Below, one piece after another: positions 1,346-61,400 of a DNA stretch of 64,000 nt. The first letter of the stretch is position 1; each line of letters opens with the position of its first letter. Source of the DNA: Amoebophrya sp. A120. Its lineage: Eukaryota > Protista > Dinoflagellata. Below the pieces are notes generated by a model. The model was not told the origin of the DNA, did no database searches, and worked only from the letters and a program-made list of their open reading frames with translations. The stretch is taken from positions 2,232,001 through 2,296,000 of the forward strand of contig CAJINV010000008.1 in NCBI GenBank assembly GCA_905178155.1. Reading direction: 5' to 3'. Both the position numbers and the translations under genes were made by a program.

Positions 1346-3607
1346 TTGGATAGATCAAGAATATTTCAGCATGCTTTGATTGCCTTTTTTTGTGCGATAT
1401 CAGAGGGGACACGACCATTGGAACCCACAGATCGTGACGTTGGAGTTGACCCACCAGCATCCCCGCACCCGCTGACCCTGCGCGGCGACTCGGCTCCCGG
1501 TCGCGGTGGGGCTAAAGAGCAGAAGCTTGGAGGCGTCCGCAGAGCCGGCGCGTTCGTCGGCAAGCAACTGAGCGCCGCACGGTATCAAAAGGAAAAATCC
1601 CCCCTCCCCATATCGAAAAGGTATGTTTCCGAAAATTTCTGTTGCTGATTTGAGGTCACAAATCATGTCTGTCTTGCAAGAAGACAAGGGCAGAAGCTTC
1701 CGCCCCAATATGGAAGCGATTTGCCATGCTGTTGGGCCTAAAAGTGACCCGCTTGCCGTGCTGAACAACTAGACCCATACGCCCCTACCCAGCCTGGGGA
1801 TCTGGCCGCAGTACCTCTCTGCAATACAAACCCGATTTCGGTACACAAATCCAGCATCAGAAATTCCGTTTTGATATGGGGAGGGGGGATTTTTCCTTTC
1901 GATACACGGGAAGCAGTCGCTTCTCGCTTTAGCGGGGGAGCTAGGAACAGGAGAAAATCCGACCTACCGGGGGAAGCCTGCACTTTGTATCACGTGGCCC
2001 GCGACGGCAAGCCGTTTTTCGATGCGAGTGAAGATTCCGGCGCAGACGGTGCGAAGTGTAGAAGCGGCATACACGATCATGATCGTGGTCGGGTCGCACC
2101 AAGTACCGCGTTGACGCCCCGGCTATCAAATGTAAAAATGTCTGGGTCTGGAAGATTGGAACTTGTGATGCTAACTTTGGAATGTAAAAAAATCTGTATT
2201 GCATGACCAGCAAGAGGAGCCACATTTGTGCTACGCGAGGAGGGCATTTGTCATGCGCAAATGGCATCAGGAAGCTTTCCAAAACTCTGTGATGCTGGGT
2301 CATGCATTACAAGCATCATGGGTCATGCCAGACAAGCATGACAAGCCTTCCATTCTTCCAGACCCAGACATTTTTACAGTTGATACCGGCGCCGCAGCAT
2401 CGAAGAAATCTTAAACGATTCGGATCGCGTATGGATGTGTCAGAGTTGAAATCGTCAAAGTTGAAATGATTTGTCATGCAAAAAATGCGACACAATATTG
2501 CAGAGGACGCACGGGAGGCAGATCATAGTCCTGGTAAGGGTCAAAAGTTGGACTGCTGACTAGCATGACAGAAGGCACCTCTTTTGCCCTGAACCGCATG
2601 ACAGACTCGCTTCCAGGACCGGGAAAATTTGTCATGCACCGACTACAAACTGTAGGCCTAATTGGTATCCGTTTTATGCATGACAAACTATCTCAACTTT
2701 GACGATTTCAAACCTGACACATCCATATCGCGTTCTATCGAAGTCCCCGCGCTATGCCTGGAGTATGTTTAACTCAAGTCAGGGCCATGGTCAGCGACAG
2801 CTGGTGGTACAGGCTAGCTGTGCGAAAATGCAAGAACTCTTGTTGTCTTGCCGATACTTATCAGTCCGTGTGGCTTGTTGTCGTGCACTTGTTTTTCCAA
2901 CATGGAAAAAATAGCAGTGCCTGGTCGGGCACCTTCTGCCTGACAAAGATACAAGCAGAAGCCGAAACTGGGTAGGAAGTCGAAACATAAAAAACCCACT
3001 ACAGAAGTAATAAGTGACGCGACACAACATTTTACGTAGCATGTTTTACTTCCTGTACTTTACTTACCTTAGGTATTCGATTTTTGTTTTGGAAGCCTGA
3101 CGCGGGTAAGATTTTTCCAGTCGAAACGCTCGGAAGCGCAACAAAATACTGCGAGACGAGCGGCAGTCGGTTTCCGTCCCCCAATAGCAGCGGAGCTGGG
3201 AAATATCCAAGAAGAAAACTCCTTTACTGTGGTCCTGCATTTGTAAAGGGTGCAGCACAGTTGGCTTGCATGGCTCATATATAAAGTGAGCGCTGAAATG
3301 AAATAAAACTCTTTTACGCTTCGGTTTTTTTTTTGGGATGTCCGCCTTTCGCTGCAGCTGCTTTGTGTTTATGCAAGAGAAGCCGCTTGGCAAACGTCCT
3401 CCAATCATGCATCATGTTTGTCACAGTGAAGCCTTTTTTTTGTGTGAAACGAAATCGTGCGGGAAGAACAAACTTCTTGCGGCCCCAGGAACGGGCCCGC
3501 ACACCGACTCCCGGCGTTCGCCGTCACCGAGGGGGTCACCAAGGGGATCACTCACTGTGCATGCAGCGACCTCGCCGAGAACTTCGATTGCATCCCTGAG
3601 AGGTTGA
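1346..3607 (+). CDS. Hypothetical protein, 6 exons (4 introners + 1 GT-AG intron); true start uncertain
   Basis: Removing 1583-1909, 2124-2390, 2430-2732, 2763-3072 and 3204-3454 gives one frame: SAAR|EAVA...TPR|RRSIEEILNDSDR|VLSKSPRYAW|SIRFLFWKP...GAGK|SCGKNK...SLRG*. Confidence 0.7.
1583..1904. mobile_element. Introner family B
   Basis: TIR TATCAAAAGGAAAAATCCCCCCTCCCCATATC; TSD CACGG. Confidence 0.9.
2124..2385. mobile_element. Introner family A
   Basis: TIR TATCAAATGTAAAAATGTCTGGGTCTGGAAG; TSD CCGGC. Confidence 0.9.
2430..2727. mobile_element. Introner family C
   Basis: TIR TATGGATGTGTCAG..TTGAAATCGTCAAAGTTG; TSD TCGCG. Confidence 0.9.
2763..3072 (+). other. Canonical GT-AG intron
   Basis: GTATGT...CCTTAG; removal joins frames. 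Confidence 0.65.
3204..3449. mobile_element. Introner family D, degenerate
   Basis: Decayed TIR; TSD GGAAA/CGAAA; frame restored. Confidence 0.65.
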
Positions 3608-4567: not shown

Positions 4568-7440
4568 ATGCCGCCCCGTGGGTCCGCTGGTGGTTCCTCC
4601 GTGGCGTCCGTCATAGATGGAGTCAATACTTACATACAAGCCGGACCGGGAGGCCTCAGCGTGCTGTGCTTCTTCTACCCAGTGCAAATACTGACAGGGT
4701 GACTCAGAAGTCTGGATTAGAATGATCGCAGCAAAATTTTATCACGGAGGATTAGCACGAGCGGCTAGTATTCTTTTTATTACGGCAGGAAATCGTCAAA
4801 AGAGAGGTTATGATTTTATTTAGTTTTCGGGGTGGTTTTGTATGTAAAGGTACTCTCCAAGTAGTCTGCTGGAGGAAAATAATTGCCAACATGCTACAAA
4901 TCTAATAAATGCGTGGTGTTTCCTCGTGTGTGTGTGTGGAAACGCGGATACAACTTTGCGCAAAGCATGCTAAGTATGGAGTTTGAAGGGAATCAATTGA
5001 TGGTGATTGGATGTTTGTGCCAGCTAGACGGCAGCATTCGTTTGAACCCAGGGTGCTGCATACTGGTTAATATTTGCACATTGCATATCCGCATAGGAAT
5101 CGCCACGATGGTCGTGGGTGTAATGGGAGTGCTCGAGGAAGTTATGGACCTGTCTCTGTTCATATGCGACGCAACTATACAACCGCCTCTGCCCCTTCGA
5201 ATCTTCATGACAGCTGGTGAGCAGCAAAAAGATACCCGTGCGATACTCATGTCACATTTTAGACGTGTAGTGAAGATCCAGGACACGAGTGTCTATGCAA
5301 GCTAGGTGCAGGCGCATGAAAAGCGAGAAGCATGTAGTATCGACTTCATTTTCCCTCTTTATGCAGCGATGGAGGGCCCTCACCCTCCTCATGTGCGCGA
5401 GCTCTTCATACCATACATGTGTGGGTTTTCGGGCGTAGTTTCACTGCATAGGTCAGCGACCCGTTCGACTTCGTACAATCTCTTCAGCTGTCAAATGTCA
5501 ATCTTCTGTACCTCCATCCAAACTACAGACTGATTTATTTCGAAAAACCAGATGAAGAAGTCAGGCCTTTTGTTAAGGTCGTATGATGATCTCTGTTAGC
5601 TGGAGGACGGAAGGTCCTCGAGGGACCTCGTTTTGAATTTTTTAAGAAAAAATCTAACTCCCAATTGATGGCGCTTTCTGCAAAAACAAAAACACTTATC
5701 CATATAGACTCTGCACCTCTATCTGTGTTTCTTCGGGTTTACTGCGGTGCTGCTAGAGTCGGATGCGGAACATATTGAACTGAAAAGTTGTTGTGCCGCT
5801 GCGCCGCCATCACGGGGAAATGTTTGCATTACAGCGCTCTGTGGGGAAGGTCTTTTATGCACCACCGACACAATTACTTGTCATTGTCAACCACGAATTT
5901 AGCCGAAATAATGATGAATCTGTGTAGTTGCACACTAGAGACGATGTTGCACGAGTAAAGAGGCGCGCCACGCCGAGATGCGCCGTTCCTCCATGGAAGC
6001 ATAAGGCTTCTTTGGGCGTGGGCCCGAAAGGGAGTCTTTGCACGACACGAACGTGTGTGCCGTTTTGAAGCGGGGCACTTTTCATTCTGATAAAGCGAAT
6101 CAAGGACGTCCCCGTCGTCGGTCCCCTTTCCGTGCATTTACACGCCTATCAAAAATTCGTCAACGAGTACGCGCACTTCCTCACGCACATACGCGGACGG
6201 GGCGGTTATCCTGTGCAGAAACATCCCCGCCCCGGAGTCAGGTCGGGAATTCTGCAACACAAATGAAGAAGTTTTTCTCTGTATTGTAGTGCAGGTTACC
6301 TCGAGCTCCAAGAACAGCCGCATCACAAAGCCGCCAGCTAATCCTGTTTACAGCAGTACAAAGCGCCAGAAGACGAATGGAAATGCCTCCGAGGCGCATG
6401 CGCATTACAAGCGTTCCTGTAATTGCAGATCTACATGACGATTTTGGTTGACAGCTATTTGCGGCCATGGGCACAGGGGGAGGCAAAGAGTGTCGCGCTT
6501 CTGTTTAGCATGACGATGGTGCGGGGTTGGGGAAGTTTTTGCTCAGGATCGCGGTTTCTACATATTCATCGGCACCTTTTGTTACGTCGAGCGGAAAACA
6601 AGGCTGCTCTTGCACTAGTAGTGCAGTTGTCCTCGGAAGGCGACCTAAATCAATGCGTAAACTAGGTACTTGCAGCAGGAGTTCAGTCTTATGCCACTGG
6701 AGGGCTTCTGCAATGAGACAGGCTCCTGCGAGGACGTGGGGTAGATTGTATGATCCATGGTAGCACGTTACAGAATGACCACCTGTGCACCACAATTTCC
6801 CATCCTGATGCAGATTGAAATTGGCATTCCGTTCGTTATCCGAGACTACAGCTACTGCTTACATTGGCACCACACGTTTTCATTTCATATCTGCATCACT
6901 GAGTGCATACTCTGCCCGCTCTTCCTGGTAAAAGTAGTCTTTTTTGCCTACAAAAGCTTCTCTTCGTGCCGAATGAAATGTGATGATGAAAGAGATGCTG
7001 GCTCGCAGATTTCTCGTGCTTGCGCTTTACCATTCAGCTGCATATTCGCCATGCAAGCGCTGCTGCGTCGAGATCAGGATCGATTATGCTGGCAAAACTT
7101 TACACAAAAAGATTCGCCCCAGTGCCAGTGTATCATATCAGATATTCCGATATTGGCTTCTGCACGCGCAAAGAAATCCAGACTACAAGAAAATATTGAA
7201 ACCTGCAGGTCGGCGCTGCAAACGGAGCGGTTGGAGTATTGCTCATGTTGCTGTCGTTTGGATACAAACCAGATCTCAGCTCACAGAACGTACTGTCGAA
7301 AGTCTGAACAGAAGTTCCATAGTTGGGTGGTCGGCTGGTCATCTATACTTACATGTGCAGTTGTAAATAAAGCTTTCATCAGGTGCTGGATGATTAAAAT
7401 ATCAAGCCCTGTTCTACCTCCGGGGGCACGACAGAATTAG
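4568..7440 (+). CDS. COPI-associated / TVP15-18-like multi-pass membrane protein, multi-exon; 3' end and one internal junction unresolved
   Basis: Joined exons read YIQAGPGGLSVLCFF|IGIATMVVGVMG...HLYLCFFGFTAVLLESDAE|QIKDVP...YAHFLTHIRGRGG|FYIFIGTFC|ITECILCPLFLV. The FL...GRG.FYIF.G signature matches my recollection of the COPI-associated family. Not visible in the ORF track. Confidence 0.6.
4676..5087. mobile_element. Degenerate introner
   Basis: GTGCAAATA...TATTTGCAC inverted ends; TSD TCTTC/TCCGC; frame restored. Confidence 0.55.
5773..6092. mobile_element. Introner family F, degenerate
   Basis: TATTGAACTGAAAAGT...ACTTTTCATTCTGATA; TSD decayed; element+5 restores frame. Confidence 0.6.
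6207..6550. mobile_element. Introner family E
   Basis: Internal similarity to 12806-13084; TSD GCGGT. Confidence 0.8.
6583..6889. mobile_element. Degenerate introner
   Basis: TAC...CATA ends; TSD TTTGT/TCTGC; frame restored. Confidence 0.5.
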
Positions 7441-7587
7441 CTAGTTGATGCTCCTGCCCGAGGCGGTACAGCACTTCTAAGTGTGTAACTAGGCAGGCGC
7501 CCACACAATTGCTGTAGATTCATCTCTGACTGATCACAGCGTGTTCTGCTTTTGTTCGAAACGGAAGATAGGAATTGCGACCGTGAC

Positions 7588-7629
7588 TGTGCCCGACCGC
7601 TAGCTGTTGGTTGTGAGAGTGAGACTTCT
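7588..7629. repeat. 42-bp exact direct repeat, second copy at 8661-8702
   Basis: TGTGCCCGACCGCTAGCTGTTGGTTGTGAGAGTGAGACTTCT seen twice. Confidence 0.9.
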
Positions 7630-8105
7630 GGAGGTTGCACCTGGTGCGCCATTTATGGAGGTCGAGGTCGAACTGTTGTTTCCATTCAAAATCTCTGCCA
7701 ACAACTGTTCTTGCTTCTTTTTCAGCAAGGTGCCCTCAAAAAACGTGCATGATGAAGAACCGAGGTTCCTATCCGGCAGCTGCTTCGTCAAGCACCTTTG
7801 TAGGTACTGGAGGTCCTTTTCTGCCTCCACTTTCCCCCGCAGCCAGACGCAGGTGTCATTTTCCTTCAGCGTGAACCCCAGCTGGTGGAGCAGCGCTTCC
7901 AATTTTTTCGATCTCCCCGTCATGATATCGTCCGAAGGAGAAGCAGCAGGAGCAAGATCTCTCGTTGTTCTTTGGCGCTCCTGGTGGTCGTGCGACATGA
8001 TCTGCAACGCGCTAGAATCTTCATTTTTCTGCTCCTCGTAGTTCTCCTCCTGTAAAAACAACAGCGGCTCCAACTTCTGCTGCAGAGTGGCGTTGCCTGG
8101 CCGCA

Positions 8106-8371
8106 TATGAAATGCAACCATGTCTGGGTCTGCAAAAATTCTGAGACTTGTCATGCACGTTTTGCATGAGCCATGATGTCTGTGATGCATGCCCTAGCAT
8201 CACAGATTTTTTTGGGGCCTCCTGATGCCTATACCGCATGACAAATGCCCTCTCCGCGTAGCAGAAAACGCATTCCCTTTGCTGCTCACGCAAGGTAGAT
8301 TTTTTTGGAATCCAAATGCAGCATCACAGGTTGCATTCTTCCAGACCCAGACAACATATTTGCATTTGATA
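8106..8371. mobile_element. Introner family A
   Basis: TGTCTGGGTCTG/CAGACCCAGACA TIR; TSD CCGCA. Confidence 0.9.
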
Positions 8372-8405
8372 CCGCAGCCGGCGAAACTTGTCGTTGTTGG
8401 GGTCA

Positions 8406-8660
8406 TATCAAATGTAAAAGTGTCTGGGTCTGGAAGATTGCCAGGTTTGTCATGCACATTTTGCATGACTCCTGATGTCTGTGATGCATGCCCTAGCATC
8501 ACAGATTTTGTGAGGGCTTCCTGATGCCTGTACCGCATGACAAGTGCTCTTTCCGTGACTTGGACTCTCTTTGCTGCTCATGCAATACAGATTTTTTTAG
8601 AATCCAAAATCGGCATGACAAGTTGGATTCTTCCAGACCCAGACATTTTTACAGTTGATA
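8406..8660. mobile_element. Introner family A lacking a TSD
   Basis: Intact TIRs; flanks GGTCA / TGTGC do not match. Confidence 0.85.
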
Positions 8661-9207
8661 TGTGCCCGACCGCTAGCTGTTGGTTGTGAGAGTGAGACTT
8701 CTTGAGTACAAGAATACCGTCAGGCCCTACGGCTGAAGATCTTCCTCCATTTCTTCTCTGTCGGTACTACATGTGTGCTGTATGTTTTCAGATCCTAGCC
8801 CTAAAAGCTAGATCTGTGTCTTGATTTCTATTCTCTGACTATCTCTTCAATATCCGATAATTACTATCGGCATTATCCTCATCAACGAAAATTATTTTCC
8901 TTGTCACAGGACCCAGGTGATCGTGTTTTGGCACGCCCAACAAACGTGGACGACCAGGATTTCTTGAGTAGCAAAAGAAGTACTGGCCTTCGTTTTTTTT
9001 TTCTTTTTCTTCATCGGCTCGGACGCCTGAGCACTGCACTTTATCGCCCTTAGGCACTAGCATTTGAACTTGACAAAAATAAATATCATCCTCTTTGGTT
9101 GAGTGCAGAGTTGAATATTAGCACAGTATTGAATTCTTTCGAGAAGTGACAAGTAAGACCGACATCAATAGGGCCATCGACAGTGTCGTCTTTCGGAATC
9201 TTTAACA

Positions 9208-12200
9208 ATGGCGCCCCAAAGTAGAATCAGCGGAAGGATAGAGGATCCTTTGCTCTCGTTTGACAAAACGGAGTTACCAGAGGAAAAAACGAGCGGAGCG
9301 ACTTCTAACAAGACGAGTGCGGCAAGGACTCCGGATAACTTAGTGTCGGCGGACGTTTCGTCTGCGACCGCTGGTCCTACCCCCGCTCGGTCTTTGCTTT
9401 TCATGAAGCTGTTCTTCACCGCACCACCGTTGTTTCTCCTTGCTCTCGGCTTTTATCGCGGCGTCGCGCGGCATAATCCGTACGTCCAGTATGCTGTGCT
9501 GGTCGCCAGTGAAAGTGTTTTTGGCGGTAAAAAAAATCATGGTAGCTCGTCCTTAGCAGCCGACGTCGTTGTAACGCCACCAGGACGAGACGACGGGGAG
9601 ACCACCGTGTCCGTTGCTGTGGCGAGGAAGCCCCACGCTCAGCAAGTGTTAGACGCAGAAACAGTGCGTTCTCTTGTCGGAAAAACGAAGGAAAGAAGTA
9701 CTACTACAGCAAACGCTGGCGCTAGATCACCAGCCCCCGCAGGGCACCAGCAGCAAGAAGACGCAGCTAACCTCCAGGAGTTGTACGTGTGTCAGCTCTA
9801 TTCACCGCAAATTACATGCCTGGGTCTGGAAATAGTTTGTGATGTCCGCGCTCCCCGTGAGAAACTAATAAGACGACTTAATTTATTAGTTTGCATGAAA
9901 ATTTTTTGAAACCCAGGTCTCAGCACCGCACAACTCGCTTGAGAAAAAATCACGTCTTTGCATGACCAACTAAATAATTTACCCGGCGTTAACTCATCCG
10001 CTGCTCGTGCTTCATTCGAGACGCCCCAACAAGAGACGTGTGCTCCACATTCTCCCAAAGCAAGTCATATTTGCGGTGGATAAAGAGTTGGTCAACCACA
10101 CACTCGGCGTGCTGTCTGCGAGCAACACCGGGCAAATAAATCACGACTTCTTCAAAGGTTCCGACCTCAGGGAGCTGTACAACCTGCGGCTTGATAGTCA
10201 TGTCGACACGGGCAAAAAAATTCTCCTACAGGGTGACCACGTCACCAAGGTGTTTTCCACAAGGAGCAGCAAGTTCGATCCTGACGACAAGACGTCTGTT
10301 ATTACCCATGGCGAGACGTCAATCGAGGAAACTTCTGCAAGTGCAACACCGAGCGCGGCGGCTGCTGCGCAAAAACTGGCGTCGCGAAAAAATAACGCAA
10401 CAACCACCTACACGTCGCCGACGCCGTTTGTTCCTTTCGGGGACTGGATCTTTGATCTGCAGAAACTTCGCGAGGAAATTCAAGCAAACAAGGACCGTTT
10501 CGTATCAAAGTGAAAAAAGCCCCCACCCCATATCGGAAACGGAAGATACGCGAATTTGTGATGCTGTATTTGAGTACACAAATGGACTTGCATTGCTAGA
10601 GGGCCAAGAGACTAAGCTGCGGCCTAAATTGCAAGTAATCTGTCATGCTGTTTCCCACTTCCAGTTGCCTCCTGTCATCCTGGAGCTGCAAGGCTTTCCC
10701 ACGCTAGACAGCACTACAGTCCGCATCTTTTGCCTTCTAGCATCACAAAGCTGATTTGTGACCCCAAATCTGCATCACAGATTTCCGTCTTGATATGGGG
10801 AGGGGGGATTTTTCCTCTCAATATTTCGTCGTTGTCCACGATTTTTTGTCGCCGGAGTTTCTCGCCCGAGTATTCTATTTAAAAACGTCCCCACCCCATA
10901 GTTGTAATGCAAATCTGCATGCTGAAAATGTTTCTCATGCGGAGCCCCATGAGAAGCATTTTCCAATCGTGTTTTGCAATTTGTCGTGCTCCAATCAGCA
11001 TGGTATGCTAGATCTGTAATGCTGCTGAGCTACCTCAAACAGCACTACACTACGAGTCCAAATTTGTCATGCAAAACAGACAAGACTTGTGGACTTCTCT
11101 AGCCGATTGCCCATCTTGACTCTGGTGTGGGTACGTTTTTACTCAGGATACCGAGTGACTGCCGCGTATCCCGAGGTTGTAGTCAACGAAGTGTTGGACG
11201 GGGAAAAAATGAAAAATGACAAAAGCAGCCCCAAGCTCAAAAGCGAATCTGTGTCTGGTGCACAAAACATAGGAACGGAAATGAACAACACTACAACAGA
11301 AGAACTAGTGCCATCAGAAGCTGCTGAGTCCATATCCAGGAAAAAAACTGTGTCAGTGTAACTTTTTTCGGACGAACAGCATCACAAATGAATATCGGAC
11401 GAACAGCATCACAAATGAATTATGGTAAAAATATCGGCGCGGTTCTTTTAGAATCACAAATGAATAAATATACCTGGCATGATTGAGGACAGCAAAATAA
11501 AGTTGCCATACGAAGCAAGTACTGGGTGGAGAGTTGTACGTGATAACACGACACATCAGATACGAAACTTGCCTGCGACAACGCATGTCAAGCATGACAA
11601 CAAGGTTCACAACTGTTTTGCGGCGTCTGTACTTGTTCTGCAAAGTTACGCACAGAAGTTTTTGTCTTGCATAGTCTAACTGGTTCATGTACAGCAACCC
11701 GTTGGAGGTCAAGTACTTGAACGATCACTTCGAGCGGTACCAAGCCGACCTGAAACGGTATTTTCACCTTTTATCCCACCCGGTCGTTGCCCATGTGTTC
11801 ACGAAGCTCTTCGACTTTTCGGAAGCACTTCACTACGATCCAGTGATCCACGGTGGGGGATTGCACGCGATGCCACGGGTATCGCCAGAAAGAACTGTTT
11901 CACTGTAAACTTGTAATGCAGAAAATGTATTTCACAAGTGTTTGTCTTGCTAAACATGCAAGACAGTGGAGTTTTAGCTGTGTTTTCCCTTAGGAACCTT
12001 GCATGGCAAATTTTCTTTGTCATGTAGAGCAAACTTGTGATGCAAAACCTGCAAAATCCTTGCAGTGAGACACTTTTTTCGTACGATAACGGGGTGGCCG
12101 GCTGAACATGCACCTGGATTACGAAAAGCACCCCTTTCTGAAAAACAAGCAGCGGCGATTGAATGTGATTTTCTTCCTCAATGACGAGTGGCGGGTATCC

Positions 12201-14020
12201 GATTGCACATCAGAACCCGCATCCCCCATCATTTGTTGAGTATCTATGCATTAGAATAGCATGAAATTGTTCATGCGTAACGATCGAAGCTTAAGCTTTC
12301 ACTTTAATTATTACCAGAAATTTAGCGCATGTGGCAAGAAACACAAGAAAGGAATTTATTATCCACGTGCTTGTCCTCGTTAGAGACTCCGGCCCGTGGT
12401 TTTTACTAGGCTTCTGCACCTTGTCAAATGCAGTGTGCTGCAGTTAGAGAGCAATAAGGACAACGGGAGTCCGAATGATGGAGGGGAGGCAGAGTTGTGC
12501 ACTCTCATAGCGTGAGGAATGGAACGGAGACGTCCAATTGTGGTCGTCGAAGAGGACAGGAAGTGGCACCCCGGCAGGTGGAGGTGACGCGGCCGAAAAT
12601 AAAGTGGAAGACGGCACAACAACCATCGGCGTTGGTGTAGTCGAAGCGCATGGGAAAAATCAGGAAGCCGGAGAGGTTGCTGAGGGTACAAATAAAATGT
12701 TGTCCGAAGCAGGGCCGGATGAGGTAACCGGAACAAGAAGTCGAAGCGCTTCTTTATCATCGCGTACTACTAGTACTATCAAAAATATAAGTAACCCGAT
12801 GGACATATCCTGAGTAAAAACGTACCCACACCAGAGTCACCACGGGGATTTTGCAACACAAGCCTAGGAGTTTTGTGAGTCACGCATGACAAGTTGCACT
12901 CTGCAGTGTAGTGCAGGTTAGCAAGTGCAGCCGCATCACAGATTCATCTGCTCATCCTGTTCACAGCATCACAAATTCCAAAACACGATTGGAAATGGCT
13001 CTCATGCGGATGCGCATTACAAGTCTTCCTGTCTTTGCAAATCTGCATCACAACTCTGGCGTGGGTACGTTTTTACTCAGGATAGGACAAGATGCTGACC
13101 CGGCACTACCCGAAAAAAAACTCGGTCATCATCTTATCAACTGCAAAAGTGTCTGGGTCTGGAAGAATGCAAGTTTGTTATGCTTGTCTCACATGATTCT
13201 TAAATTTGTCATGCACATTACCCAAGAGCCCCATTTTGCTGTCATGCAGAAACGCAGTTTGTCATGCAGATTAGGCAACACCTCTAAGCTCAAAAGCTTG
13301 TCATGCTGAGCCAGCATTTGTGGCCTCTTCATGATACGCCACCCAGCATCACAAGTTTCCAGACCCAGACACTTTTACAATCCATACATCTTCAAGACGG
13401 ACGAGGAATCCTTCCACGGGGTGCCGGACGTGTTGCTCAATCCGGCAAACTATCAAGTGTAAAAATGTCTGGGTCTGGAAAGTTGGAACTTGTGATGCTA
13501 ACTTTGGAAACTAAAAAAATCTGTATTGCATGACCAGCAAGAGGAGCCACATTTGTGCTACGCGAGGAGGGCATTTGTCATGCGGAAATGGCATCAGGAA
13601 GCTTTCCAAAAATCTGTGATGCTGGGTCATGTATTACAAGCATCATGGGTCATGTCAGACAAGCATGACAAGCCTTCCATTCTTCCAGACCCAGACATTT
13701 TTACACTTGATACAAACACGACCAGAAACACCATCACCTACTACTACCTCTCCGACCTGCAGTCAACCTCGGATCTAAAGAAACAGGGCGCGCTCTCCGA
13801 CGGGTTTCGCGCGAAGGCCACGTACTTTCAGCGGCCGACCGAAAACGTGGACGAGAACTTGCAGAAACTGTTCCAGATCCGCAGCAAACGAAGAATCGAG
13901 CAGAGCGACTTGGACGAAATTTTGGGCAAAGATTGGCACTACAAGGATTCGCTGCCCGAGGGACGGGGGCGAGTATTCAGCGACGAGGCGAAAGTGGAAA
14001 AAGAGAAATCCGAACTATGA
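9208..14020 (+). CDS. Membrane-anchored 2OG-Fe(II) oxygenase (prolyl-hydroxylase-like), about 10 exons
   Basis: N-terminal hydrophobic stretch. Spliced motifs FVVVHDFL, WFMYSNPLEVK, HGGGLHAMPRGGRLNMHLD (HxD), RRLNVIFFLNDEWREEWNG, FKTDEESFHG (distal His), RNTITYYY. First intron (~9790-9995) boundaries unresolved. Confidence 0.85.
10503..10823. mobile_element. Introner family B
   Basis: TSD TTTCG. Confidence 0.9.
10871..11150. mobile_element. Introner family E
   Basis: TIR ...GGGTACGTTTTTACTCAGGATA; TSD CCGAG. Confidence 0.85.
11333..11673. mobile_element. Introner family D with internal 27-bp tandem duplication
   Basis: TSD GTCCA/GTCTA. Confidence 0.8.
11880..12088. mobile_element. Introner family D
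   Basis: TSD ACGGG; diverged reverse complement of 42028-42236 (both 209 bp). Confidence 0.9.
12196..12509. mobile_element. Degenerate introner
   Basis: TATCCGATTGCACA...TGTGCACTCTCATA; TSD GCGGG/GCGTG. Confidence 0.7.
12806..13084. mobile_element. Introner family E
   Basis: TIR TATCCTGAGTAAAAACGTACCCAC.CCAGAGT; TSD GGACA. Confidence 0.9.
13135..13386. mobile_element. Introner family A
   Basis: TSD CATCT. Confidence 0.9.
13451..13712. mobile_element. Introner family A, near-identical to 2124-2385
   Basis: TSD CAAAC; same 262-bp length. Confidence 0.92.
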
Positions 14021-15280
14021 CTTATAAGCGGCGAGTCGTAGTCATTTGTATTTCGGGTATAATTTGTTGTTGTGAACCACTAGTGCCAGCTCCGTCGTGA
14101 TGTACTTGTATTGTAGTGGATGCGCCGAACTAGAACTCCTATCCATTTTATTCAGAAAAACTACGTTTGTTCATGGAAGCCGCTACGATGGACCACTACG
14201 TGGACCATTCATTCTATCTCCTGAAGCTTTCCGATTTCTGATTCTCTTTCTCGCCTTATTTCAGAAACCCTCCCTGAAGTTCTTGACGTTCGCGCGGGAG
14301 CCCGATGCGCTTGACTATTTCAGCAACCAACTGGAAAAGATCGCGATTCTAAGTTTCCGTGAGTGGACGAAGCAAAATGCATGCGCATGAAAGGAGTAGG
14401 AATTTTTTGTGTTAGGAGCATCACGTTTGAGTTTTTACATTTAGCTAGTCGCGGCACTGAAAGATCGCAATTGAGTTCTTCAGATCAACATGAGAAACGA
14501 ATTCTCTGATGAAGTTTCTTCCGACTACCGCCTTCTTCGTACGTATTGCTTGTGCAGACGATTTCTCTAGGTCCAGTGTTCGATATCTCGATATCATCAT
14601 GGATGATGCTTTCTTGGCCCACTACTTACGGTGCCTAAGTGAGTAGCTGAATTTCGTCGACTACCGGAGCCATGCGGCGGTCACTTCTGGTCGTTCTTGA
14701 ATAAAAATTCGTTGCTTTGTTTTCTATGCTTTTTGGTTTTGGAGGATGAAGTGATCGTCATGATAACAGTACACAAACACACTAGTAGGATCTATTGGTC
14801 CACTTTTCAACATCGTCGCGAACGGAAAATTGGTCGTGAGCAGATGAAGATCCTTCATCTACTTTTTCCCTATCGATTTAAGCGTGATCGTCATCGTCAG
14901 CATTTCGTTTCGAAATCAATCGCTCATTCGTGTTGTCGCTTCTCTATTCCCATTTTGGTCGTTCCAAAATGACATGATCGTTGTGTAAGAGGGAGAGAGC
15001 CCTCCTTGGATACCTCCTTGAAGCGTCCAGACCAGTAAGCCAACATCGGATATCCGGTTCGCCAAAAATTATTTCGTGGTGTCCACCTAGCCGTCGTGTG
15101 TATGATCCCCGGCAAAGCATGCATCGTATTCTTCCAAAGAAGCATACTGTATAGGACAACTAGAAAGTCGTGCTAGACTAAGTTCGTCATGATCATTTTT
15201 GCTAAAGTGCACATGGATATGGGAAATTGTATTAATGGGTCGTCCTCACATCACAGCATCGCGGGCGGTGATTGTTCACA

Positions 15281-48578: not shown

Positions 48579-48589
48579 TGAGGTCACCG

Positions 48590-49290
48590 AACGGTTCTAA
48601 CCGGGGAGTTTTTTTGACACCCAGCCAGCAAAACGGCCGGCAGTTTTCAAGCGGCCGAAGGCGTTTTTTGACATAAAAAATTTTCAATTATCAAGCGGGC
48701 GGGGCTTTGATATCAAACAAGCCCGGTCGAAAACTATCGATTCGCACTTGATAAAACGACGCAGGGGAGCCGGCAAAAGGGGCGCCCTTCTGAGGAGCCC
48801 ACCGCCTTAGTTTGTGGCGGTTTGGGGCGCCCAAAAAGAGGCGCGCAGAAAACGCGCCCAAAATCAGAACAGCGGAACAGCATGGCACGGCCGCGATTTC
48901 GAAGCATTTTGGGCGGCCGCGAAAGCGGCCGCCTTTTCGCCGGTTTCAGAGCCTGGGGAGCTTTGCAAAAAGCGCCGGCGTGAAAAATAAAAACGCAAAA
49001 GAGAAAAAGCGCGCTAGACGCGCAAAGCCAACCCGCATGCTACGGGCCCGATTTGTCTTCGCTTTTTGGGCGCCCCCCGTGGCGCCCGGATCGGCCCCAT
49101 AGCATGGGGGCTCGCTTTCGGAAAGGAATTTTGGAAATGTGCCAAAATTTGTGACGTTTCTCAAGTGACCGCCATACCGTGCGGCATGACGTTACTCGCG
49201 GCGGTATGGCGAGCCCAGAAAAAGCAAAGCCGCGGCCAAGGCGGCTGTCGGAAAAAAAACGCCCACGACCTCACTACCCCCGCCCCGGCG
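48590..49290. other. Compositionally distinct, hairpin-rich intergenic segment
   Basis: Alternating A/T tracts and GC palindromes; GGCGGCCGC-GAAA-GCGGCCGCC at 48912-48933. Confidence 0.5.
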
Positions 49291-49320
49291 GCTATATTTG
49301 GTATCGTTGCGGAGGAGAAA

Positions 49321-52300: not shown

Positions 52301-55130
52301 CGCCAGCAGGAGGAGGACATTGCGTTGAACACGAAAGGAAATAAACGTTCGATAAACATATGTAAAAATCGAAACCAGGTTGACCGACTACGTGATCTTT
52401 CATCCTCGCGACACCGGGGAAAACCTGGCCGGCGTCTTCCGCAAAGACCCGAACAGATGGCAGCCGAAGCGGCGGCTGAGCAGTGTGCCCGGGGTCTATG
52501 TGCCCTTGGAGAATTGGGGGCTGTTCGACCTAGAGCCGGAGGTCTCACAGCTGTCCTTGACCATGCGGGGCGTCGACACGCAGACGTGGTACCCGCCCAC
52601 GTACGGCGACGGCCCGCCGAAACCGGAAATTCAGTTCGTCGATATTTTGATGAGCCGGAAAATTCAGGAGTTTGCGACGTACAGCAAGCGCTACAGCGAG
52701 ACTTTTCTGAAACGAGACCTCACGCTGCTGATCACCCTGCTCGACACGGCCGGGGGGAAGGTACCTCTACTTCCCGGTGGTGGAGCGGCAAACATTACGA
52801 CTACCGGGGCGAAGAAGATGAACAACCCGAAGACCTCGGTTGCCGCGTCCTTATCCACGACAGGAACTGCCTCCTCGTCTTCATCTGCCGGTGCTGCTGA
52901 CCCTCCTGGGGCCGCGAAGGTCGTCGTGGACCACAATACTATTAAAGAGGCGTACTCAACAACAGCTTCGTGTCCGATATGGCATTCTCAAACGTTACAT
53001 TCTCAACTGTTACATGAATTTGTAATGCAAGACTAGCACAGGTGAGAGGGAGAACCTTGCGCGTCTTGCATTACAGGTTTGGTGCGGATTACAGTGCTAT
53101 TTAGCCCTCCGGGAATTTGTCATGCGAAGCAGCTTGATCGTCTGGCGGGTCATGGTCATTTTGCATGACAAATCATGTAACAGTTGAGAATGTAACGTTT
53201 GAGAGCCCCATATCCGAATTTGACGCACAGCCAGCGCTTTGTCAACCGCGGCCTCGTGGCCCGCACCGAGTATCGTAAGGAAAAATCCCCCCTCCCCATA
53301 TCGAAAGCGTATCCGTCTGAAAATTTGCGATGTGCATTTGCGACCTCAAATCCTGTCTGTGTTGCAGGAAGGCAAGTCCAGAAAGCGTTCCGCATTTTGC
53401 AGGCGGTTTGTCATGCTGTTTGGCTTAGAGCATACACGTTTGTCATGCTAGGCGCCTACGTCAAAACCTCTCGACTGAGGCTTGACATATGCCTGCACTC
53501 CTCTACTGCAAGACAAATCTGATTTGTGTACGCAAATCCAGCATCACAAACTTCGTTTTGATATGGGGTGGGGAGATTTTTCCTTTTGATACCGAGAGCC
53601 CCGGCTTCATGCGCATAACGCGGACCGTAAGGGTCCCGAGCACCATGGACATGCAGGAGTTTCAGGAGAAAATTTTGCAGCCCGCGATGGGGTGGCAGAA
53701 GTCGGAAAGCAACTACGTTTTCTACGACGGCTCGGACGGCGGTGCGATCGGAATCGAGCAGAACAACGAACTATCAAATGCAAAAGTGTCTGGGTCTGGG
53801 AGATTCCGAGATTCGTCATGCTGTTTTTTCAAGCTCCCCCACGTCTGGAATGCAGGGCGCAGCATCACAGGTTCTGCAGCTCGTTGGTGATGCGTATTCT
53901 GCATGAGAAATGCCCGCTCAGAATGGCCAGAAGTGGGCACCTTTTGCACGTTCTGCATCACAGATCACTGTAGGATCCGAAACACGCATCACAAGTTCGG
54001 ATCCTTCCAGGCCCAGACATATTTGCATTTGATACGAACACCACATGGCCGTGCTCGGGTTCCGCTTCATTCTATCAAAAGGAAAAATCCCCCTGCCTCA
54101 TATCAAAGCGAAATTTCTGATGCGGGATTTGGATACACACATCACATTTGTGTTGCAGTAGAGGACTGCACCCAGATCCTAAGCCTAGGCAAAGGCCTTT
54201 TGGTGTAGGCGCCTAGCATGGTAGACGGCTACCATGCAGGCCTCACAGCATTACAAATCGCCTGCGTAATGTGGCGGACAGCCTGAGCGTGCCACCTTGC
54301 AAGAGAAACCCGATTTGTGGTGACAAATCTGCATCACAAATTTTCAGAAGGATGCGCTTTCAATATGGCAAGGGGGGATTTTTCCATGCAATACATTCCA
54401 CCCAAGGAGTGCCTGGTCGGCCAGGTATTCCGCACCATCGAGGATAACGCCACCTACGTCTACGACCTGTCGAACGAGCGCTGGCGGCACCACATTTCCG
54501 TCTTGGAAATCCATGCAGTGGAAGATTCCACCGGGTTCCCCGACCTGCTCGCCGGCACGATGCGGTGCCCCCCGGAGCGGCTCAGCAGTGACAAAACCTT
54601 ATCCTGTGCAAATGCCTCGTACTCGTATAAATGCATTACAAATTTCCTCAGCATGAGAAATAAAATTTGTAATGCTGATCGACCTCAAGAACAAGATTTG
54701 TAATGCATGATTGCAATACGAGTACGATACTTTTGCACAGGATAAACCTCGAAAGACGAGCCGGGCGTGCGGAACGCCTACAACCGGTTCTTGAAAGATA
54801 TGCATTGCAAATATGTCTGGGTCTGGAAGGATGCGAACTTGTAATGCTGGCGCTGCATTCGAACCTGTGAATTCTGTGCTGCATGACCAACAAAAGTGGC
54901 AGCCTCTCATGCCATACAAAAACGCAGTTTCTCATGCAGAGTTCGTATGAGAAGGCGCTCTACGAGCTTGTCATGCTTTCCTGCATACGAAAGTGTCTTT
55001 ATCATGCACATTTTTGCATTACAAATTTCCAGACCCAGACATTTTTGCATTTCATAAAAGATCTAGAAGCGCAATTCGCCAAGGGCTGTTGGGGCTCGTT
55101 TGACAACGATTTTGCCGTGTCCTCGTATCA
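49321..55130 (+). CDS. Large multi-exon protein containing a pRiA4b ORF-3-like domain; may continue into the downstream CDS
   Basis: Spliced RITRTVRVPSTMDMQEFQEKILQPAMGW...YVF...YVYDLSNERWRHHISV...PDLLAGTMRCPPE matches the recalled pRiA4b ORF-3 pattern (RR..VP...Q.AMGW; Y.YD...W.H.I; G...CPPE). Junctions near 52140-52380 and 55130-55430 unresolved. Confidence 0.7.
49675..50017. mobile_element. Introner family A-related, degenerate
   Basis: Right end CCAGACCCAGATCGATATTTGCAACGCATA; TSD decayed; element+5 restores frame. Confidence 0.65.
51222..51544. mobile_element. Degenerate introner
   Basis: TSD TCCAC; frame restored. Confidence 0.6.
52978..53212. mobile_element. Introner family G
   Basis: About 40-bp TIR; TSD TCCGA. 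Confidence 0.9.
53271..53591. mobile_element. Introner family B
   Basis: TSD CCGAG. Confidence 0.9.
53772..54034. mobile_element. Introner family A
   Basis: TSD CGAAC. Confidence 0.9.
54073..54393. mobile_element. Introner family B (reverse)
   Basis: TSD CATTC. Confidence 0.9.
54600..54744. mobile_element. Introner family H (145 bp)
   Basis: TATCCTGTGCAAA...TTTGCACAGGATA; TSD AACCT. Confidence 0.9.
54799..55056. mobile_element. Introner family A
   Basis: TSD AAAGA. Confidence 0.9.
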
Positions 55131-55429
55131 GAGCGAAAACGATGCAATTAACAGTTCTCCAGAAGTAGTTCACGTGGCAAATAATTTCCAAATGCTGTCT
55201 GCGCTGCCGAATAAATAGTAATAGCATGATATGAAAATGAAATTGAACCAATAGGACTACGAGTCTCGTCCGTAAGTCGGAGCGAGTGTACTACGCGCGC
55301 CAAGCACATTTTACAACATGACAAGCCATGGTCTTATTAGGCTGTTTTGCATACACAGATTTTTGGTATTCTGGGCCAAAAAGCTCTGCGGCTAGCGCTA
55401 CGACATCCCCGAGGCCGGTTGTAATATCA

Positions 55430-58400
55430 AATTTGCAACGCAAGTGGTTCCAACTTCTGGGGTACTACTAGAAGCGGGACTTTTCACTATGATGCCTTCT
55501 CGTTCCCGCCCAAGTTGACCCGGTGGCAGAAGCGGCGGCTGGACGAAATCGCGGCTATCACGCCGGTATGAAATGCAAAAATGTCTGGGTCTGGAAGAGT
55601 CGGGACTTGTCATGCACATTTTGCATGACCCGTGAGGTCTGTGATGCTGGTGCTAGCATCACAGATTTTTTGAGAGCTTCTTGATGCTAATTACGCATGA
55701 GAAATTCCCTCTTAGCGTGCCAAGAACTGACTCCTCTTGCTGCTCATGCAACACAGATATTTTTAGAATCCGCAGACAGCATTACAAGTTGCATTCTTCC
55801 AGACCACCCAGACACTTTTACATTTGATAGCCGGGGCAAGTGTTGAATCCGGGGTTGCTGGCGCTTGCCGCAGGCGGCGCCTCCTCTTCATCTACTTCCC
55901 TTGCGTCACCCACGATCAACCCCTTCCGGTTTGACTTGGAATTTCACAAGAATCACATCGACCAACTTTTCGGCCGAGACAAGGCGAAGCTGAAAAAGCA
56001 AGCAGCCCGAGCGCGGAAGAAGCAGGCGGCGAAAGCGAAGAAGATACTAAACGCAAAGAATTTATGGATGTGTCAGGATCGAAATCGACAAAGTCGAAAA
56101 ATTTGTGATGCATAAAATCGATACCAGTTGGAGCCTCAGTTTGTAAGTGGCGCATGACAAATTTCGGGAGCACTCAAATCCAGTCTGTCATGCTGTTTGG
56201 GCAAAGAAGACTGCTCCTGTCATGCTACTCTGGCAGCACATTGCATACCGCCAAACAGGCTTGCAATCGGTCTCATTTGCCTGCTCCCCAATACAGGCCT
56301 CCAGTGCCCTACATTTTATGCATCACAAATTTTTCGATTTTGCCGATTTCGATCCTGACACATCCATAGAATTTGATGCAAGAAAAAGCAGGAGATGGAG
56401 AAGATGAACAAGAAGTAGAGAGGAAAGTAGATGAGCACCAACCTCAAAGTCACGACGAGGATTGGCAACGCGAGAGCACGACCATTGGATTCGCCGAAAG
56501 CGAAACAATAGCTTCGATTGTCGCGAATGCCCGCAAGCCCGAACTTGGCAGCAGCTGCGAAAAGGAGGTCGAAAACAGCACAAGAAATAAAATCGCAGAA
56601 TTAAATAAACCAAAGCAAGTCGGGGTTCTGCAGGAGCCTTCTAAAGATGCAGATGGAATAAATAAAGCCGGGAACAAACGAAATGAAATCAGAAGGCCTG
56701 CAATCTTGCACACCGAGCGGGGAACCGAGATTGACGTGGATGCGCTGACGCCAATATCCCGCGGCAAGATCGAAAAAATCCTCGAGCAGCTAACTCCAGT
56801 GGGGTCGTCGTCGACGGAGGTGGTACAACAGCCCCCGCGGCGAAGCTGCAGTGCATCTGAGGTACTGATGCCGGAGCCTCCTCCTGTCGTGAAGCCAACA
56901 GACTTGCAGCTCCGGGAAGCGGATGAGCGAAAAATTTTGAACACAAAGGAAGACAACACAAAATCCACGACGGCCGCGGAGGACGATGAAGACCACCACC
57001 AGCATCCTTGTGTAGTAGCGAGCCTGATGCAGGAGGAACCCGAGAATGGAAAATCCGAAAACGCCTCAAGGGATTGTTCCGACGATGAGCTGCACGATGG
57101 GGGAACAGTGGCGCAGCAACATCTTGTTCAAGGCAAACGAGCCCGCGCTGCATCCTCGCCTGCGAAATCTAGTGACTTTCTCGTTGCAGACCGTGAAGTT
57201 GTGCCAGAAGTAGGAAGTCTATCGGATTCAGCTGCATCTTCCCCCCGAGGAGGCGCAGCTCAGGATGAACTCGCGCACCTTTCGTCGCTCTTCGATGAAT
57301 GTGAGCACGCAAGTACGATGGGGATGGACGGCGATGGTGCGCAACAAGCAGATCTTCGGACGATCTTCGAAGAAGAGCTTGTGGTCCGACGTTCTTGTCC
57401 TTCGGAAGTAGAACTACAAGTAGACCAGTGCAGCTCGCCTGGAACTACAACAACATCGTCCAACCCCCCGAAGGACGACGAGCACGACCACTTCTACACT
57501 AGCTACCTGGCCCTCGGGAAAGTGAGTCGGTACGACCGGGTTACGGGGCACACACAGGACGTAGAAGAAATTCACGGGTTGCAGGGGCTCTGGAAAACGC
57601 TCTCCTCTTTTCCCGAACGGCAGCTTCTCCAGGTGATTTCCTGGGACGAGTCCAGCGTGAATCTGCTGCGCGACGACCTGATACTCGAAGACGACGCGTG
57701 GGGCACTCGTGATTCTCGTATGCTTTCAGCAGATCATGCGAACAATCCTGTAGTTCTGGAGGAAGAACTTTCAACATCGCGGCTACAAGTGCTGGACGAC
57801 GGCGGGGAGGAACATGATGAAGAACGCGAGCACGACGAAAATGTAGACCATGTCCGCAAGAATCCTGGCAATGTCAAGATACAGCACCAGGCACCTCCTT
57901 TATTTCGGCACACAGCTTTTCGGACGTCTCTCGAGCGTGCCGGCGGAGAAGAAGCTGCCCCAGCAGCCAAATCGAGGGATGGCAAAAAGAACGCCGCGGC
58001 GACGAGCGCTTCTACAGGGGGAGCTGGTGGGGCGGCCCAGCCGCAGGGGGCCGGTCAGAACCGAAACAATGGTCCTCGGGCCCCGCCGTCGACAGGCTCG
58101 GCAACCGCGAGCCAGCCAGAAACAACGGGCTCGGATTCTAGCCAGCTGCAAACCGCAGCGGACAAGAACAGCCCGCCCCCGACGAACAACAGGAGCAACT
58201 TGAGTGACCCGGTGCTGAAGAGGAAGCCTCGGGGTTGGCTCGACGTGGCGTTGCAACAGGTGGACTACTTGTACGACCCCGTCGCTGGTCGCCCCGCTGG
58301 GTTGCCGTTCCTCGAGCACCAGAAAACCTCCCTGCAGCTCCTCCCGCGTTTGTTTGAGTTCCTTTTGAAGATCATGTTCTTCATTTCCGAGGAAATGCCA

Positions 58401-61400
58401 CTCACGCGCGACGTCTTCGAGTTTTGCGTTATCTTGTGGAAAAACGTAGAAGTACCTATCTTCCCTGTCAATGTCATACATGCAAAGGAGCTGCTGGTAG
58501 GTGCATCCCTAACCCTAGACTAGCGCTAGTGCACCCACTTTATTCCGTCAACGGTGATTTCACTTTCGAGGCCTGTGTGTTCGGGAAAATCCGTCAGTCT
58601 CGTTGTCTGAGCCGGATAACACTGCTGGGGACTTCTGTTAGGCACAAGAACTACACAGCACATCCATTGTGGTCATGCGTCGTCAGGCCTAAGAATAAGA
58701 TTCTGATTTCCAGACTTGTCTACTAGCCAAGAATCTGGCATTTTGAAATAGGGACTCTGGGTACGTTTTTACTCCTGACTTCCGTGCATGCGGCCGCGAC
58801 CGACGGGCAGGGGAGATCCATGGGCCCGGTGGGGAACGCAAGATGCGGCTACGCACGCGTCGCGGCACAAACGGACTTCAGCACGCGGATATTTGCAGAA
58901 AACCTTTCATTTTGCGGCTATTTTCAGACCAGGGAGCAGAAGAAAAACTTTCAGTCCCAGTTTATTCTGCTGTGTCGGCAGCTGAAGACCGATTTGAAAG
59001 TGTTCGATTTCGTGCAAGACCGCGCGCCGGAATGCTATCAAACGGTGCTCATCTTCTGGAAAAATCTCAAGAACAGGTGGAACAAAGTACCAAAATGAAA
59101 AGCCGAAGGAAATGATCGTGTAGTTGTCTATCTGTGCACAAATAATGGAACTCAAGCAGAGTAAGTAGTCTACTTGCTGCAGCTCCTCTTCTCAAAGCTT
59201 TATAAAATTCTAGATATGAGTTTATGCAGTGTGCTTTTTCGCCGTTTCAGTTTCACTTTCGCTTCATGGGCGAAGTATCTGCCATTCTAAATAGACCGCG
59301 AATACATCAGTCCTACAACAACACATAGAGGTCGTTTGCATTTCGCCTGACCAATTGTAACTGACATTTCAGTTCTTGAGATCAGTTCAGCCGAGCAGGT
59401 CTTATTTCCATAGCTGCGTGCGGAAGTTTCTGCTGAGGTTTCTCCCGGTGCTGCTGAAAATATGAACTGCAAAAGTATCGTACTCGTATAAATGCATTAC
59501 AAATTTCCATAGCATGAGAAATAAAATTTGTAATGCTGATTCACCTCAAGAAAAAGATTTGTAATGCATGACTGCAATACGAGTACGATACTTTTGCACA
59601 GGATAGGAAAAACCTTCCAGCAACGACGCCTTCACGTACCAGTTGTGCTCCCGATTGCGGTATCAAGTGTAAAAGTGTCTGGGTCTGGAAGATTGCCAGG
59701 TTTGTCATGCACATTTTGCGTGACTCCTGATGTCTGTGATGCATGCCCTAGCGTCACAGATTTTGTGGGGGCTTCCTGATGCCTATAACGCATGACAAAT
59801 CCTCTTCCCATGTGGCAAAACTTGCACTCTCTTTGCTGCTCACGCAATACAGATATTTCAGAATCCAAAACCAGCATGACAAGTTGGAGTCTTCCAGACC
59901 CAGACATTTTTACATTTGATATGCGGTATGAGCTGCTGGGCAACGGGAAAGACGCGCTAGAACGGGAGCTTATCGTGAAAGCAAGTCCCCTCGACGAGGT
60001 AGGGATCGGGCGGGATGTTCCGGACCGCGTCGCAGACCGGTTTGTTGTGCTGCTCGAACTGAATGAAATGGCAAAGGTCTATTGCTTGCAAACCGAAGCT
60101 GAATTATATTTGGCGAAGATAGACAATTACAATGCTTGTTCTACTCAGGAGGCGCAATCTGGAGACGAGAACAGCAGGACCGCGCCGTTGCAAGATGAAA
60201 TGAATAGCAGTGCCTGTGGCCCCCGCGGGGGATCTGGATCTCCTGGACCGCCAGCAGCGTCCGCGAAAAATATTACAATACGCAGTAGTACAACTACTGC
60301 TGCTTGCTGCGACACGGAGTGCACCAGCCTGGTCAACCCGGCGCACCCGGACGGGAAAAACACGGTGTGCGTATCCCGTCTGCTCGCCGAGTTTGCGAGG
60401 AGTGTGGTAGACAAGCAGTGCGAGGAGCGGACGGCGTTTTTCAAGTCGGAAGGAACAAGCAAGTATCGGAAGTACTTTCCCACTTTTCTGGGGGATGCCG
60501 TGCGGATCATGGACCCGTTGCCCGTGCTGGCCATGAAGTTTGCGCCGAAGGGCCTGATAGAAGCTGCGAGCCGAAATAAAAAAGTCGAGGATCATCGCGC
60601 GAACGCGAGAATTATAGCGCACCGTAAGAAAGGAGGATCTTCTGTTGATGTGGAAAGTTCGTGTGCTGGCGGCGAAGCTGGTTCTTGTTATTCTGAGGAC
60701 GATAGAAGCTCAGAAGATGGCTTAGTGGACGAAGATTCTGACGACGAACACGCGCGGCGCGAGTTGGATCGCAATATCAACTTGGACCGACAGCGCCGGT
60801 GGCTGAACGATCGGCTCTACTCGCAGAAATACAGCGTCCGAAATAAAAGCGACGGGAAGGACGGCGAGTCGGATAATTGCGTTACCACGGTGGGCGACTT
60901 GAAAAAGCTTGTTCTGCACACCGTCGGAGCTCCCGAGCGGCTGCAGGCCGGTGCAACCGCAGATCCCCCGGTCTTGAAGAAGAGTCGCAAGGAACATCGA
61001 CCGCTGGGGCCGGAGGAGTCTTTTCTGAAGGGCCTGGACGATTTTGTCGCGTCTTTTCGATACCAGTATCAGCAAAGCATGAAAAAGGCGAGTCAAGAAG
61101 GAGGCGCTACAACTTATCAGGCCGTGGCTCCTGGTGACGTTGTTCGTGAGCAGCAACTACATCAAAGCCATTATACTGGTGCACAACAGTCCACCACCTC
61201 TGACGCTTCAACGAGGAAGCAAGGGGCCTCATCAACTTCTGGTATTCCGCTCGCGTGCAATTTCCAAACGGGTGCGGATTTAAAGAACACGAGCTCTCGT
61301 CCTGATGGTTGTACCTCAATATCCCGCTCGGAACATCTTCAACAGGAAAGCTGCACACAAGGACCAGCAGACAAACCAAGAACGCGTCTAACTTCAGACA

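Follow-up and report, generated by a model that had tools for sequence, protein, structure and literature searches.

We analyzed a 64,000-nucleotide (nt) stretch of the Amoebophrya sp. A120 genome (the window; contig CAJINV010000008.1, positions 2,232,001 to 2,296,000, forward strand), in which short elements with terminal inverted repeats (TIRs) interrupt protein-coding genes, two of which are GalNAc-transferase-like (PF00535, PF00652). The hand-curated list holds 56 elements of 145-470 bp, in agreement with the initial annotation, which had claimed about 55 elements of 145-440 bp from at least eight families. That annotation also described TAT...ATA ends and 5-bp target-site duplications (TSDs). 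Both ends were found in 46/56 elements and one variant end (TAG, TAC, ATC, ATG, GTA, or ACA) in 10/56, and the two TSD copies matched at 5/5 positions in 34 elements, at 4/5 in 10, and at three or fewer in 12. Thus, the described anatomy is prevalent but not universal. In an end profile of 27 elements, TAT scored 0.97 and positions 11-15 were A-rich.

A strict scan of the window (TAT...ATA ends, inverted match of at least 13/20) yielded 68 pairs, 27 of them with a perfect 5-bp direct repeat, versus no such pair in each of 10 shuffled sequences. A profile scan returned 52 candidates at a score of at least 24, and four shuffles gave 0-4. BLAST clustering of 54 window elements, a set that took in a weak candidate (5773) and a wrong end for 12196, gave seven multi-copy families (11, 5, 4, 3, 2, 2, and 2 members) and 25 singletons. 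Singleton 33076 has five copies in another assembly and makes up the eighth family. The seven multi-copy families are present in both orientations inside plus-strand genes of the window. As a wider sample we used one metagenome scan (154 loci of another assembly, 505 kb merged), in which the same families occur at up to 95% identity and reach 151 copies. There, an exact 5-bp repeat flanked 260/327 elements chosen blind to their flanks, and flank identity was 0.93 across the five duplication positions versus 0.19-0.25 beyond them. Summed contig depth of the elements was up to 2e5 versus 27, showing that they are repeated in the genome. The elements are inverted-repeat transposons of the non-autonomous kind, and their insertion duplicates 5 bp of the target; like other miniature transposable elements with inverted repeats (MITEs), they are short and non-coding, with TIRs and a TSD of fixed length, and are found in either orientation.

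No transposase or integrase family was detected in 26 open reading frames (ORFs) of the window or in 98 of the 111 long ORFs of the loci, and no long TIR pair enclosing an ORF was found in these 0.57 Mb of window plus loci. The mobilizing enzyme would be an integrase-like DDE transposase. IS3EU transposons, with TAY...RTA ends and 6-bp duplications, provide a lead. Ginger transposons encode an integrase-like transposase and have TGT...ACA termini; membership in this group was rejected because the termini here are TAT...ATA. An Rfam scan of the window gave no matches. Internal 8-mer motifs common to all families, on both strands, were 15-25 fold enriched in the elements over the whole window and are possible candidates for transposase or RNA-binding sites. 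Two main-family elements were enlarged by internal insertions to 972 bp (locus L073, 6790-7761) and 631 bp (locus L048, 3862-4492; merged coordinates), with the duplication and the outer repeats still intact.

Deleting each element together with 5 nt yielded frames of 753, 1059, 769, 1842, 1134, and 2987 amino acids (aa), and all five conserved motifs that the initial annotation expected from such deletions were restored. When elements of four genes were tested one at a time, removal of the element plus 5 nt kept the full frame in 30/30 cases, versus 3/30 when the element was left in. In the wider sample, 300-nt joins were stop-free in some frame in 196/262 cases at +5, versus 143-149 for the other two frames. 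Removal of the element plus 2 nt is frame-equivalent, and the frame test alone cannot fix the 5; this length follows from the RNA joints described below and from the length of the duplication.

Transcript evidence came from contigs of several sequencing runs. Run X1, which may be the window's own source, was read as DNA from its even depth of about 27-35 over genes, introns, and spacers. Runs X3 to X6, all from one sample, were read as RNA from a joined GT-AG intron and zero depth over 29.9-34.5 kb; the RNA-like runs do not cover the genes at 29.9-42.4 kb. In X3 to X6, 11 joints were found in one gene, each in 4/4 runs: nine close over a single element, one closes over a canonical intron, and one bridges a 12-nt exon together with the canonical intron and the element on its two sides. 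The last (25171-25550) carries seven intervening letters that map to the micro-exon. Two further element joints were found by X3 in a paralog. At 11/11 measured joints the element plus 5 nt had been removed, as the initial annotation had predicted for transcripts, and 12 elements were missing from RNA-like contigs at non-canonical sites (Table 1). A 3811-nt RNA contig, whose individual joints are not listed, bridges the stretch of elements 17420-19693. From the raw RNA runs X9 and X10, 29 and 2 reads were placed, at element ends only.

The same elements are present in DNA. X1 contigs crossed 11/12 of the RNA-joined elements with no gaps, at a depth of 27-29. A 310-nt RNA contig (27524-27833) retained element 27555 at a depth of 7-18, versus 61-91 for the spliced form, and low-depth RNA-like contigs were located within elements as well as within a GT-AG intron, as expected of pre-mRNA. 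Elements are thus kept in DNA contigs and retained in low-depth RNA contigs, indicating that they are removed at the RNA level. Retention, which would have spoken against removal, was confined to low-depth contigs, and the joined form was the major one. Of the two routes that had been considered previously, removal from RNA therefore stands, and excision from DNA is disfavored.

Three diverged duplications revealed where the cuts lie. The number of left-copy nucleotides kept was 2-4 at element 22747, 4-5 at element 25586, and exactly 4 at element 27555. Since only a register of 4 fits all three, the intron is N-TAT...ATA-NNNN, with 1 nt before the element and 4 nt after it. Removal is precise, as had been proposed, but it takes 1 nt of the left copy and 4 nt of the right copy, not one TSD copy. 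At element 27555, the repeats match at 1/5 positions, and the joint (27553-27804, 4/4 runs) has no ambiguous letters. This zero-microhomology joint shows that the direct repeat is a by-product of insertion and not a splice signal. Two conclusions go beyond the initial annotation: no matching repeat is needed, and selection acts differently on the two ends of the TIR (see below).

Known splice signals do not describe these introns. GT/GC-AG could be placed at 0/56 window elements in any of six registers. Among 255 elements of the loci oriented by a coding model, GT-AG ends were at chance level (7/255), in disagreement with a U2-type GT/GC donor and AG acceptor. The duplication had background composition, and there were 60 different end pairs. 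The U12-type donor RTATCCTT failed as well: +1 is free, +5 is C in 171/255 and G in 74/255, and +6 is mixed. A synonymous bias of the duplication mismatches was considered and rejected; it looked strong in the window, and in the loci it was 23/51 versus an expected 37-45%.

The two inverted ends were compared in 237 unique oriented copies from the other assembly (duplication match of at least 4, symmetric profile). TIR position 1 showed 0 changes at the 5' end (T at +2) versus 9 at the mirror A of the 3' end (p=0.004), whereas TIR position 3 showed 8 changes at the 5' end versus 2 at the 3' end (A at -7; p=0.11). The interaction between end and position was significant (p=0.0007); its direction was constant at all five thresholds, with significance at four of them and not at the strictest (n=70). 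No significant asymmetry was detected at TIR positions 4-20. Because the directions at positions 1 and 3 are opposite, a single strand-wide mutation bias is excluded, and unequal ends are not expected of a symmetric DNA or hairpin site. In the window under the fixed register, +2 is T in 56/56 elements and -7 is A in 55/56, and the change counts agree (0 versus 6 at position 1, 3 versus 1 at position 3).

Table 1. Elements and associated features in the window (coordinates are window positions; joints are from RNA-like contigs).
Feature	Strand	Ends, duplication, or gene	Joint or other basis
1583-1904, 2124-2385, 2430-2727	+	perfect duplications	single frame open through all three
6207-6550	+	ATC right end; perfect duplication; Pfam blank	strand by eye
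8106-8371, 8406-8660	-	minus-strand gene; 8406-8660 without matching duplication
9799-10082, 10503-10823, 10871-11150, 11333-11673, 11880-12088, 12196-12509, 12806-13084, 13135-13386, 13451-13712	+	nine elements in 2OG-Fe(II) oxygenase-like gene (9799..13712), 753 aa	frame test
16488-16824	+		joint 16483-16826, 342 nt (element+5); intron 16487-16828 under the register; spanned by DNA contig 13688-17448
17420-17725, 17779-18044, 18337-18572, 18634-18954, 19383-19693	+	first GalNAc-transferase-like gene	1059-aa frame
20778-21147	+	TAG left end	joint 20772-21148, element+5
22747-23058	+	TTGAA/TCGAG	joint 22743-23061, 4/4 runs
23122-23439	+	GAACA/AAACA	joint 23117-23441
23501-23750	+	perfect duplication	joint 23495-23751
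24078-24403	+	321-bp family	joint 24072-24404
24664-24864	+	perfect duplication	joint 24657-24864
25279-25290, 12-nt micro-exon	+	between GT-AG intron 25172-25278 and an element	RNA contigs of 4/4 runs; frame kept
25292-25550	+	old element; ACA right end	absent from the same micro-exon contigs
25586-25920	+	TAC left end; CGATC/CGACC	joint 25584-25925
26108-26440	+	perfect duplication	joint 26101-26440
27209-27462	+	ATC right end; CCAAG/CAAAG	joint 27205-27465
27555-27799	+	ATG right end; decayed, CGTTG/TGGGT	intron 27554-27803, ends GT..GG
31024-31459, 33076-33302, 34553-34815, 36307-36695	+	DUF4116	1842-aa frame
37586-37877	+		perfect duplication only
40834-41071, 41119-41438, 41556-41866, 42028-42236	+		1134-aa frame
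49675-50017, 51222-51691, 52136-52404, 52978-53212, 53271-53591, 53772-54034, 54073-54393, 54600-54744, 54799-55056, 55126-55494, 55567-55829, 56063-56368	+		2987-aa frame starting at 45441
59461-59605, 59661-59921, 62764-63184	+		sequence only

The reading we favor, at a probability of roughly 55%, is that a modified, U1-less spliceosome reads the repeat ends as signals, via the U at +2 and a branch A at -7. The left repeat would provide a donor N-U-A-U in which the +2 U is the single essential base, and the right repeat would provide the branch adenosine at -7, from which the 3' cut would be measured rather than being set by an AG. Pairing of the ends would help to bring the sites together, replacing the missing U1. 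One 12-nt exon has a canonical intron on one side and an element intron on the other, and the cited sections of Farhat et al. (PMC7789003) report 83/89 spliceosomal proteins and no U1 for A120. Given symmetric repeats and offsets (1+4 nt) that add up to the 5-bp duplication, insertions are silent in either orientation, which explains the spread of the elements.

Several points weigh against a spliceosomal mechanism of this kind. The exact register comes from one joint and two bracketing ones, all in the same gene and in contigs of one sample, and the run types are tool guesses or unlabeled. Some window elements were bounded by eye from TAT outward, which biases the window tallies toward the 5' T. 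No branch site, lariat, or spliceosome binding was observed, and the conservation of the A at -7 is indirect; taken by itself, its asymmetry falls short of significance (p=0.04-0.11 in the larger sets), and element 19383 has G at -7 with its frame nonetheless open. A branch-to-cut distance of 7 nt is very short when judged by analogy with the U12 introns of Physarum, for which a preprint gives 9-12 nt (10.1101/2020.10.12.336362). Among the 255 oriented elements there was no excess of G at +1 or of AG at the intron end, nor of G-G or A-C as the first and last bases (46/255, about the base-frequency expectation), and splicing is said in the cited part of PMC13326754 to depend on the first-last intron base pair. 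More generally, contigs lose rare forms, and minor registers or rare DNA excision could escape them.

At somewhat less than even odds, the rule may amount to a second code for splicing: only the +2 U and the A at -7 would set tens of thousands of introns, with the first and last two bases free. Such a code would imply a ruler-type spliceosome that depends on neither U1 nor AG and whose offsets of 1+4 exactly cancel the 5-bp duplication, and unrelated elements, for example the 730-nt element at 48571-49300, could use it too.

The 730-nt element has offset inverted repeats, no 5-bp duplication, a GTAT start, and A at -7. Cutting it at the position given by the rule keeps the frame (chance 1 in 3). 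In length and in starting with GT it agrees with A120 families 26 and 71 in the table of Gozashti et al. (PMC12130899). At a copy of this type in locus L073 (1946-2707; 80% over 289 bp), no open frame was found at the matching border, and the rule is unsupported there. This 760-nt copy lies in an RPB1 gene (L073, 1760-2900), where about 200 bp of exon-intron sequence occur twice, once on either side of it, an arrangement that suggests an element-linked tandem duplication.

The strongest competitor, which we regard as unlikely, is a non-spliceosomal nuclease of the tRNA-splicing or RNase III-like kind that cuts the TIR RNA hairpin, leaving a 1-nt 5' and a 4-nt 3' overhang, with a ligase joining the exons. 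It would account for the arbitrary terminal intron bases and for the U1 not found in A120 (PMC7789003, sections cited), and a sequence-reading nuclease might likewise need one U. Euglenid and diplonemid introns have been suggested to leave by pathways of this sort (PMC12621601, where circles formed by excised Euglena introns are cited). Strong end stems are predicted in several introns, with exact-register end pairing in about 5/12 joined introns; however, the cut is identical in the other approximately 7/12, where this pairing is weak or slipped. Moreover, mirror positions of the stem are unequally conserved, in a pattern that fits a +2 U and a branch A.

A spliceosome of a different kind seems improbable: one using another branch site, with the 3' cut set by a protein that binds the repeat or the recurring internal motifs, or a divergent minor spliceosome reading N-TATC. 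N-TATC resembles the U12 donor of the Physarum preprint (10.1101/2020.10.12.336362, in part), the enriched internal 8-mers would offer binding motifs, and the -7 signal is weak. On the other side stand the mixed +5 and +6 positions given above and the report of Farhat et al., in whose cited sections U11, U12, U4atac, and U6atac were not found (PMC7789003).

Two further explanations have very little probability. One is that the joined form arises at the direct repeats, where a polymerase slips or a reverse transcriptase switches template; a hairpin plus a direct repeat is a classic template for such jumps, and the joined form is known from cDNA-derived contigs only. However, joint 27553-27804 lacks microhomology and still removes the element plus 5 nt, the major contig is the joined one, which the frame requires, and RNA contigs holding elements exist. 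DNA-level excision in some nuclei or at some stage, resembling that of internal eliminated sequences in ciliates, would suit the TIR-plus-TSD anatomy, and the DNA joints considered are those among the matches listed, a list taken up by repeat-to-repeat joints with 549 more beyond it, while contigs lose rare variants; it is contradicted by the DNA-like contigs crossing the elements at flanking depth, by the low-depth RNA contigs that retain elements, by conservation that follows gene orientation, and by a 4+1 mixed junction unlike the product of one staggered DNA cut.

Some observations concern the history of the host genes. In the tandem GalNAc-transferase-like paralogs (15390-28520), element positions differ between the copies, indicating that the insertions postdate the gene duplication. 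The flank of the young element at 8406 (8406-8706) repeats 46 bp located 1.07 kb away at 7588-7633, likely by an element-end rearrangement; the minus-strand frame there stays open under the fixed-register rule. The oxygenase-like gene matches PF13640 at E=0.004, under the cut-off, and at position 11203 a run of A is longer by one A in a single X3 contig (depth 19), a change that would shift the gene's frame and is absent from X1. The GT-AG intron 58497-58927 apparently contains decayed element-end sequence; the border chosen there failed to extend the frame.

The fixed register and the asymmetry of the ends appear to be new, and they make the mechanism directly testable. How more than 60% of Amoebophrya introns are removed without GT-AG and U1 is a standing question in PMC7789003 and in a 2024 review (PMC11282704), as far as their cited sections go. 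The register puts a simple rule in place of 'no signature', pinpoints the lariat position to examine, makes tens of thousands of intron borders re-annotatable, and explains how a transposon can invade exons at no coding cost. If a spliceosome is responsible, it works without the first-last base pair thought necessary for exon joining.

By description, the elements are the published introner elements of Amoebophrya A120 (PMC7789003), and, as the initial annotation had recognized, the system was already known. The cited sections describe 29,850 copies with a TAT start, seven variable bases and at least three A, an inverted repeat of 8-20 nt, direct repeats of 3-5 nt, and 'variable' splice sites. 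The window elements share the end motif, the border repeats, the sorting into many families, the size of about 240 nt, and RNA-supported, non-canonical removal. In contrast to the published 3-5 nt repeats without family-specific inverted repeats, the duplication here is strictly 5 bp, with one register and asymmetric ends. A remark there on repeats 'four nucleotides upstream', together with figures 3 and S19-S25, may have anticipated part of the offset. A literature search that did not extend to subscription papers (for example, Roy et al. 2023 and Henriet et al. 2019) gave no paper with a fixed register or lariat data.

In the part of Gozashti et al. 2025 cited here (PMC12130899), A120 family 38 is comparable: it is listed as a TIR DNA element with a 5-bp TSD, TA/TA termini, and integrase-like homology. 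It differs in its length of 808 bp, its five copies, and its ORF remnants, whereas our elements contain no ORFs and measure 145-470 bp. Neither the termini nor the TSDs of Ginger are present in family 38. In 50 of 58 A120 table rows, the splice sites annotated for the large families are mixed, as are their TSD calls; families 26, 65, and 71 have 5' GT/AT in 30/32, 4/4, and 4/4 cases, and all their 3' ends are non-canonical.

Outside Amoebophrya, the nonconventional introns found in euglenids and in hemistasiid diplonemids share paired ends, direct repeats, and the lack of GT-AG; they differ in their end motifs and in the circles seen in Euglena, and no +2 U rule is described in the cited sections (PMC11282704, PMC12621601). 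The U12 introns of Physarum polycephalum have an RTAT start in an inverted repeat, non-canonical ends, and a branch motif near the 3' end, as proposed here (10.1101/2020.10.12.336362, in part). They differ in a TA duplication, in ends that are mostly RT-AG/AC, and in the presence of a minor spliceosome, which is reported absent from A120. MITE-derived introns with TIRs and TSDs are also found in Fritillaria borealis, where, according to the cited parts of PMC11282704 and PMC13326754, an adapted U2 spliceosome removes them. In that species, AG-AC/AG-AT ends are preferred, U1 is kept, and U2AF is duplicated, whereas in the introns described here +1, -1, and -2 are free and the U at +2 is fixed.

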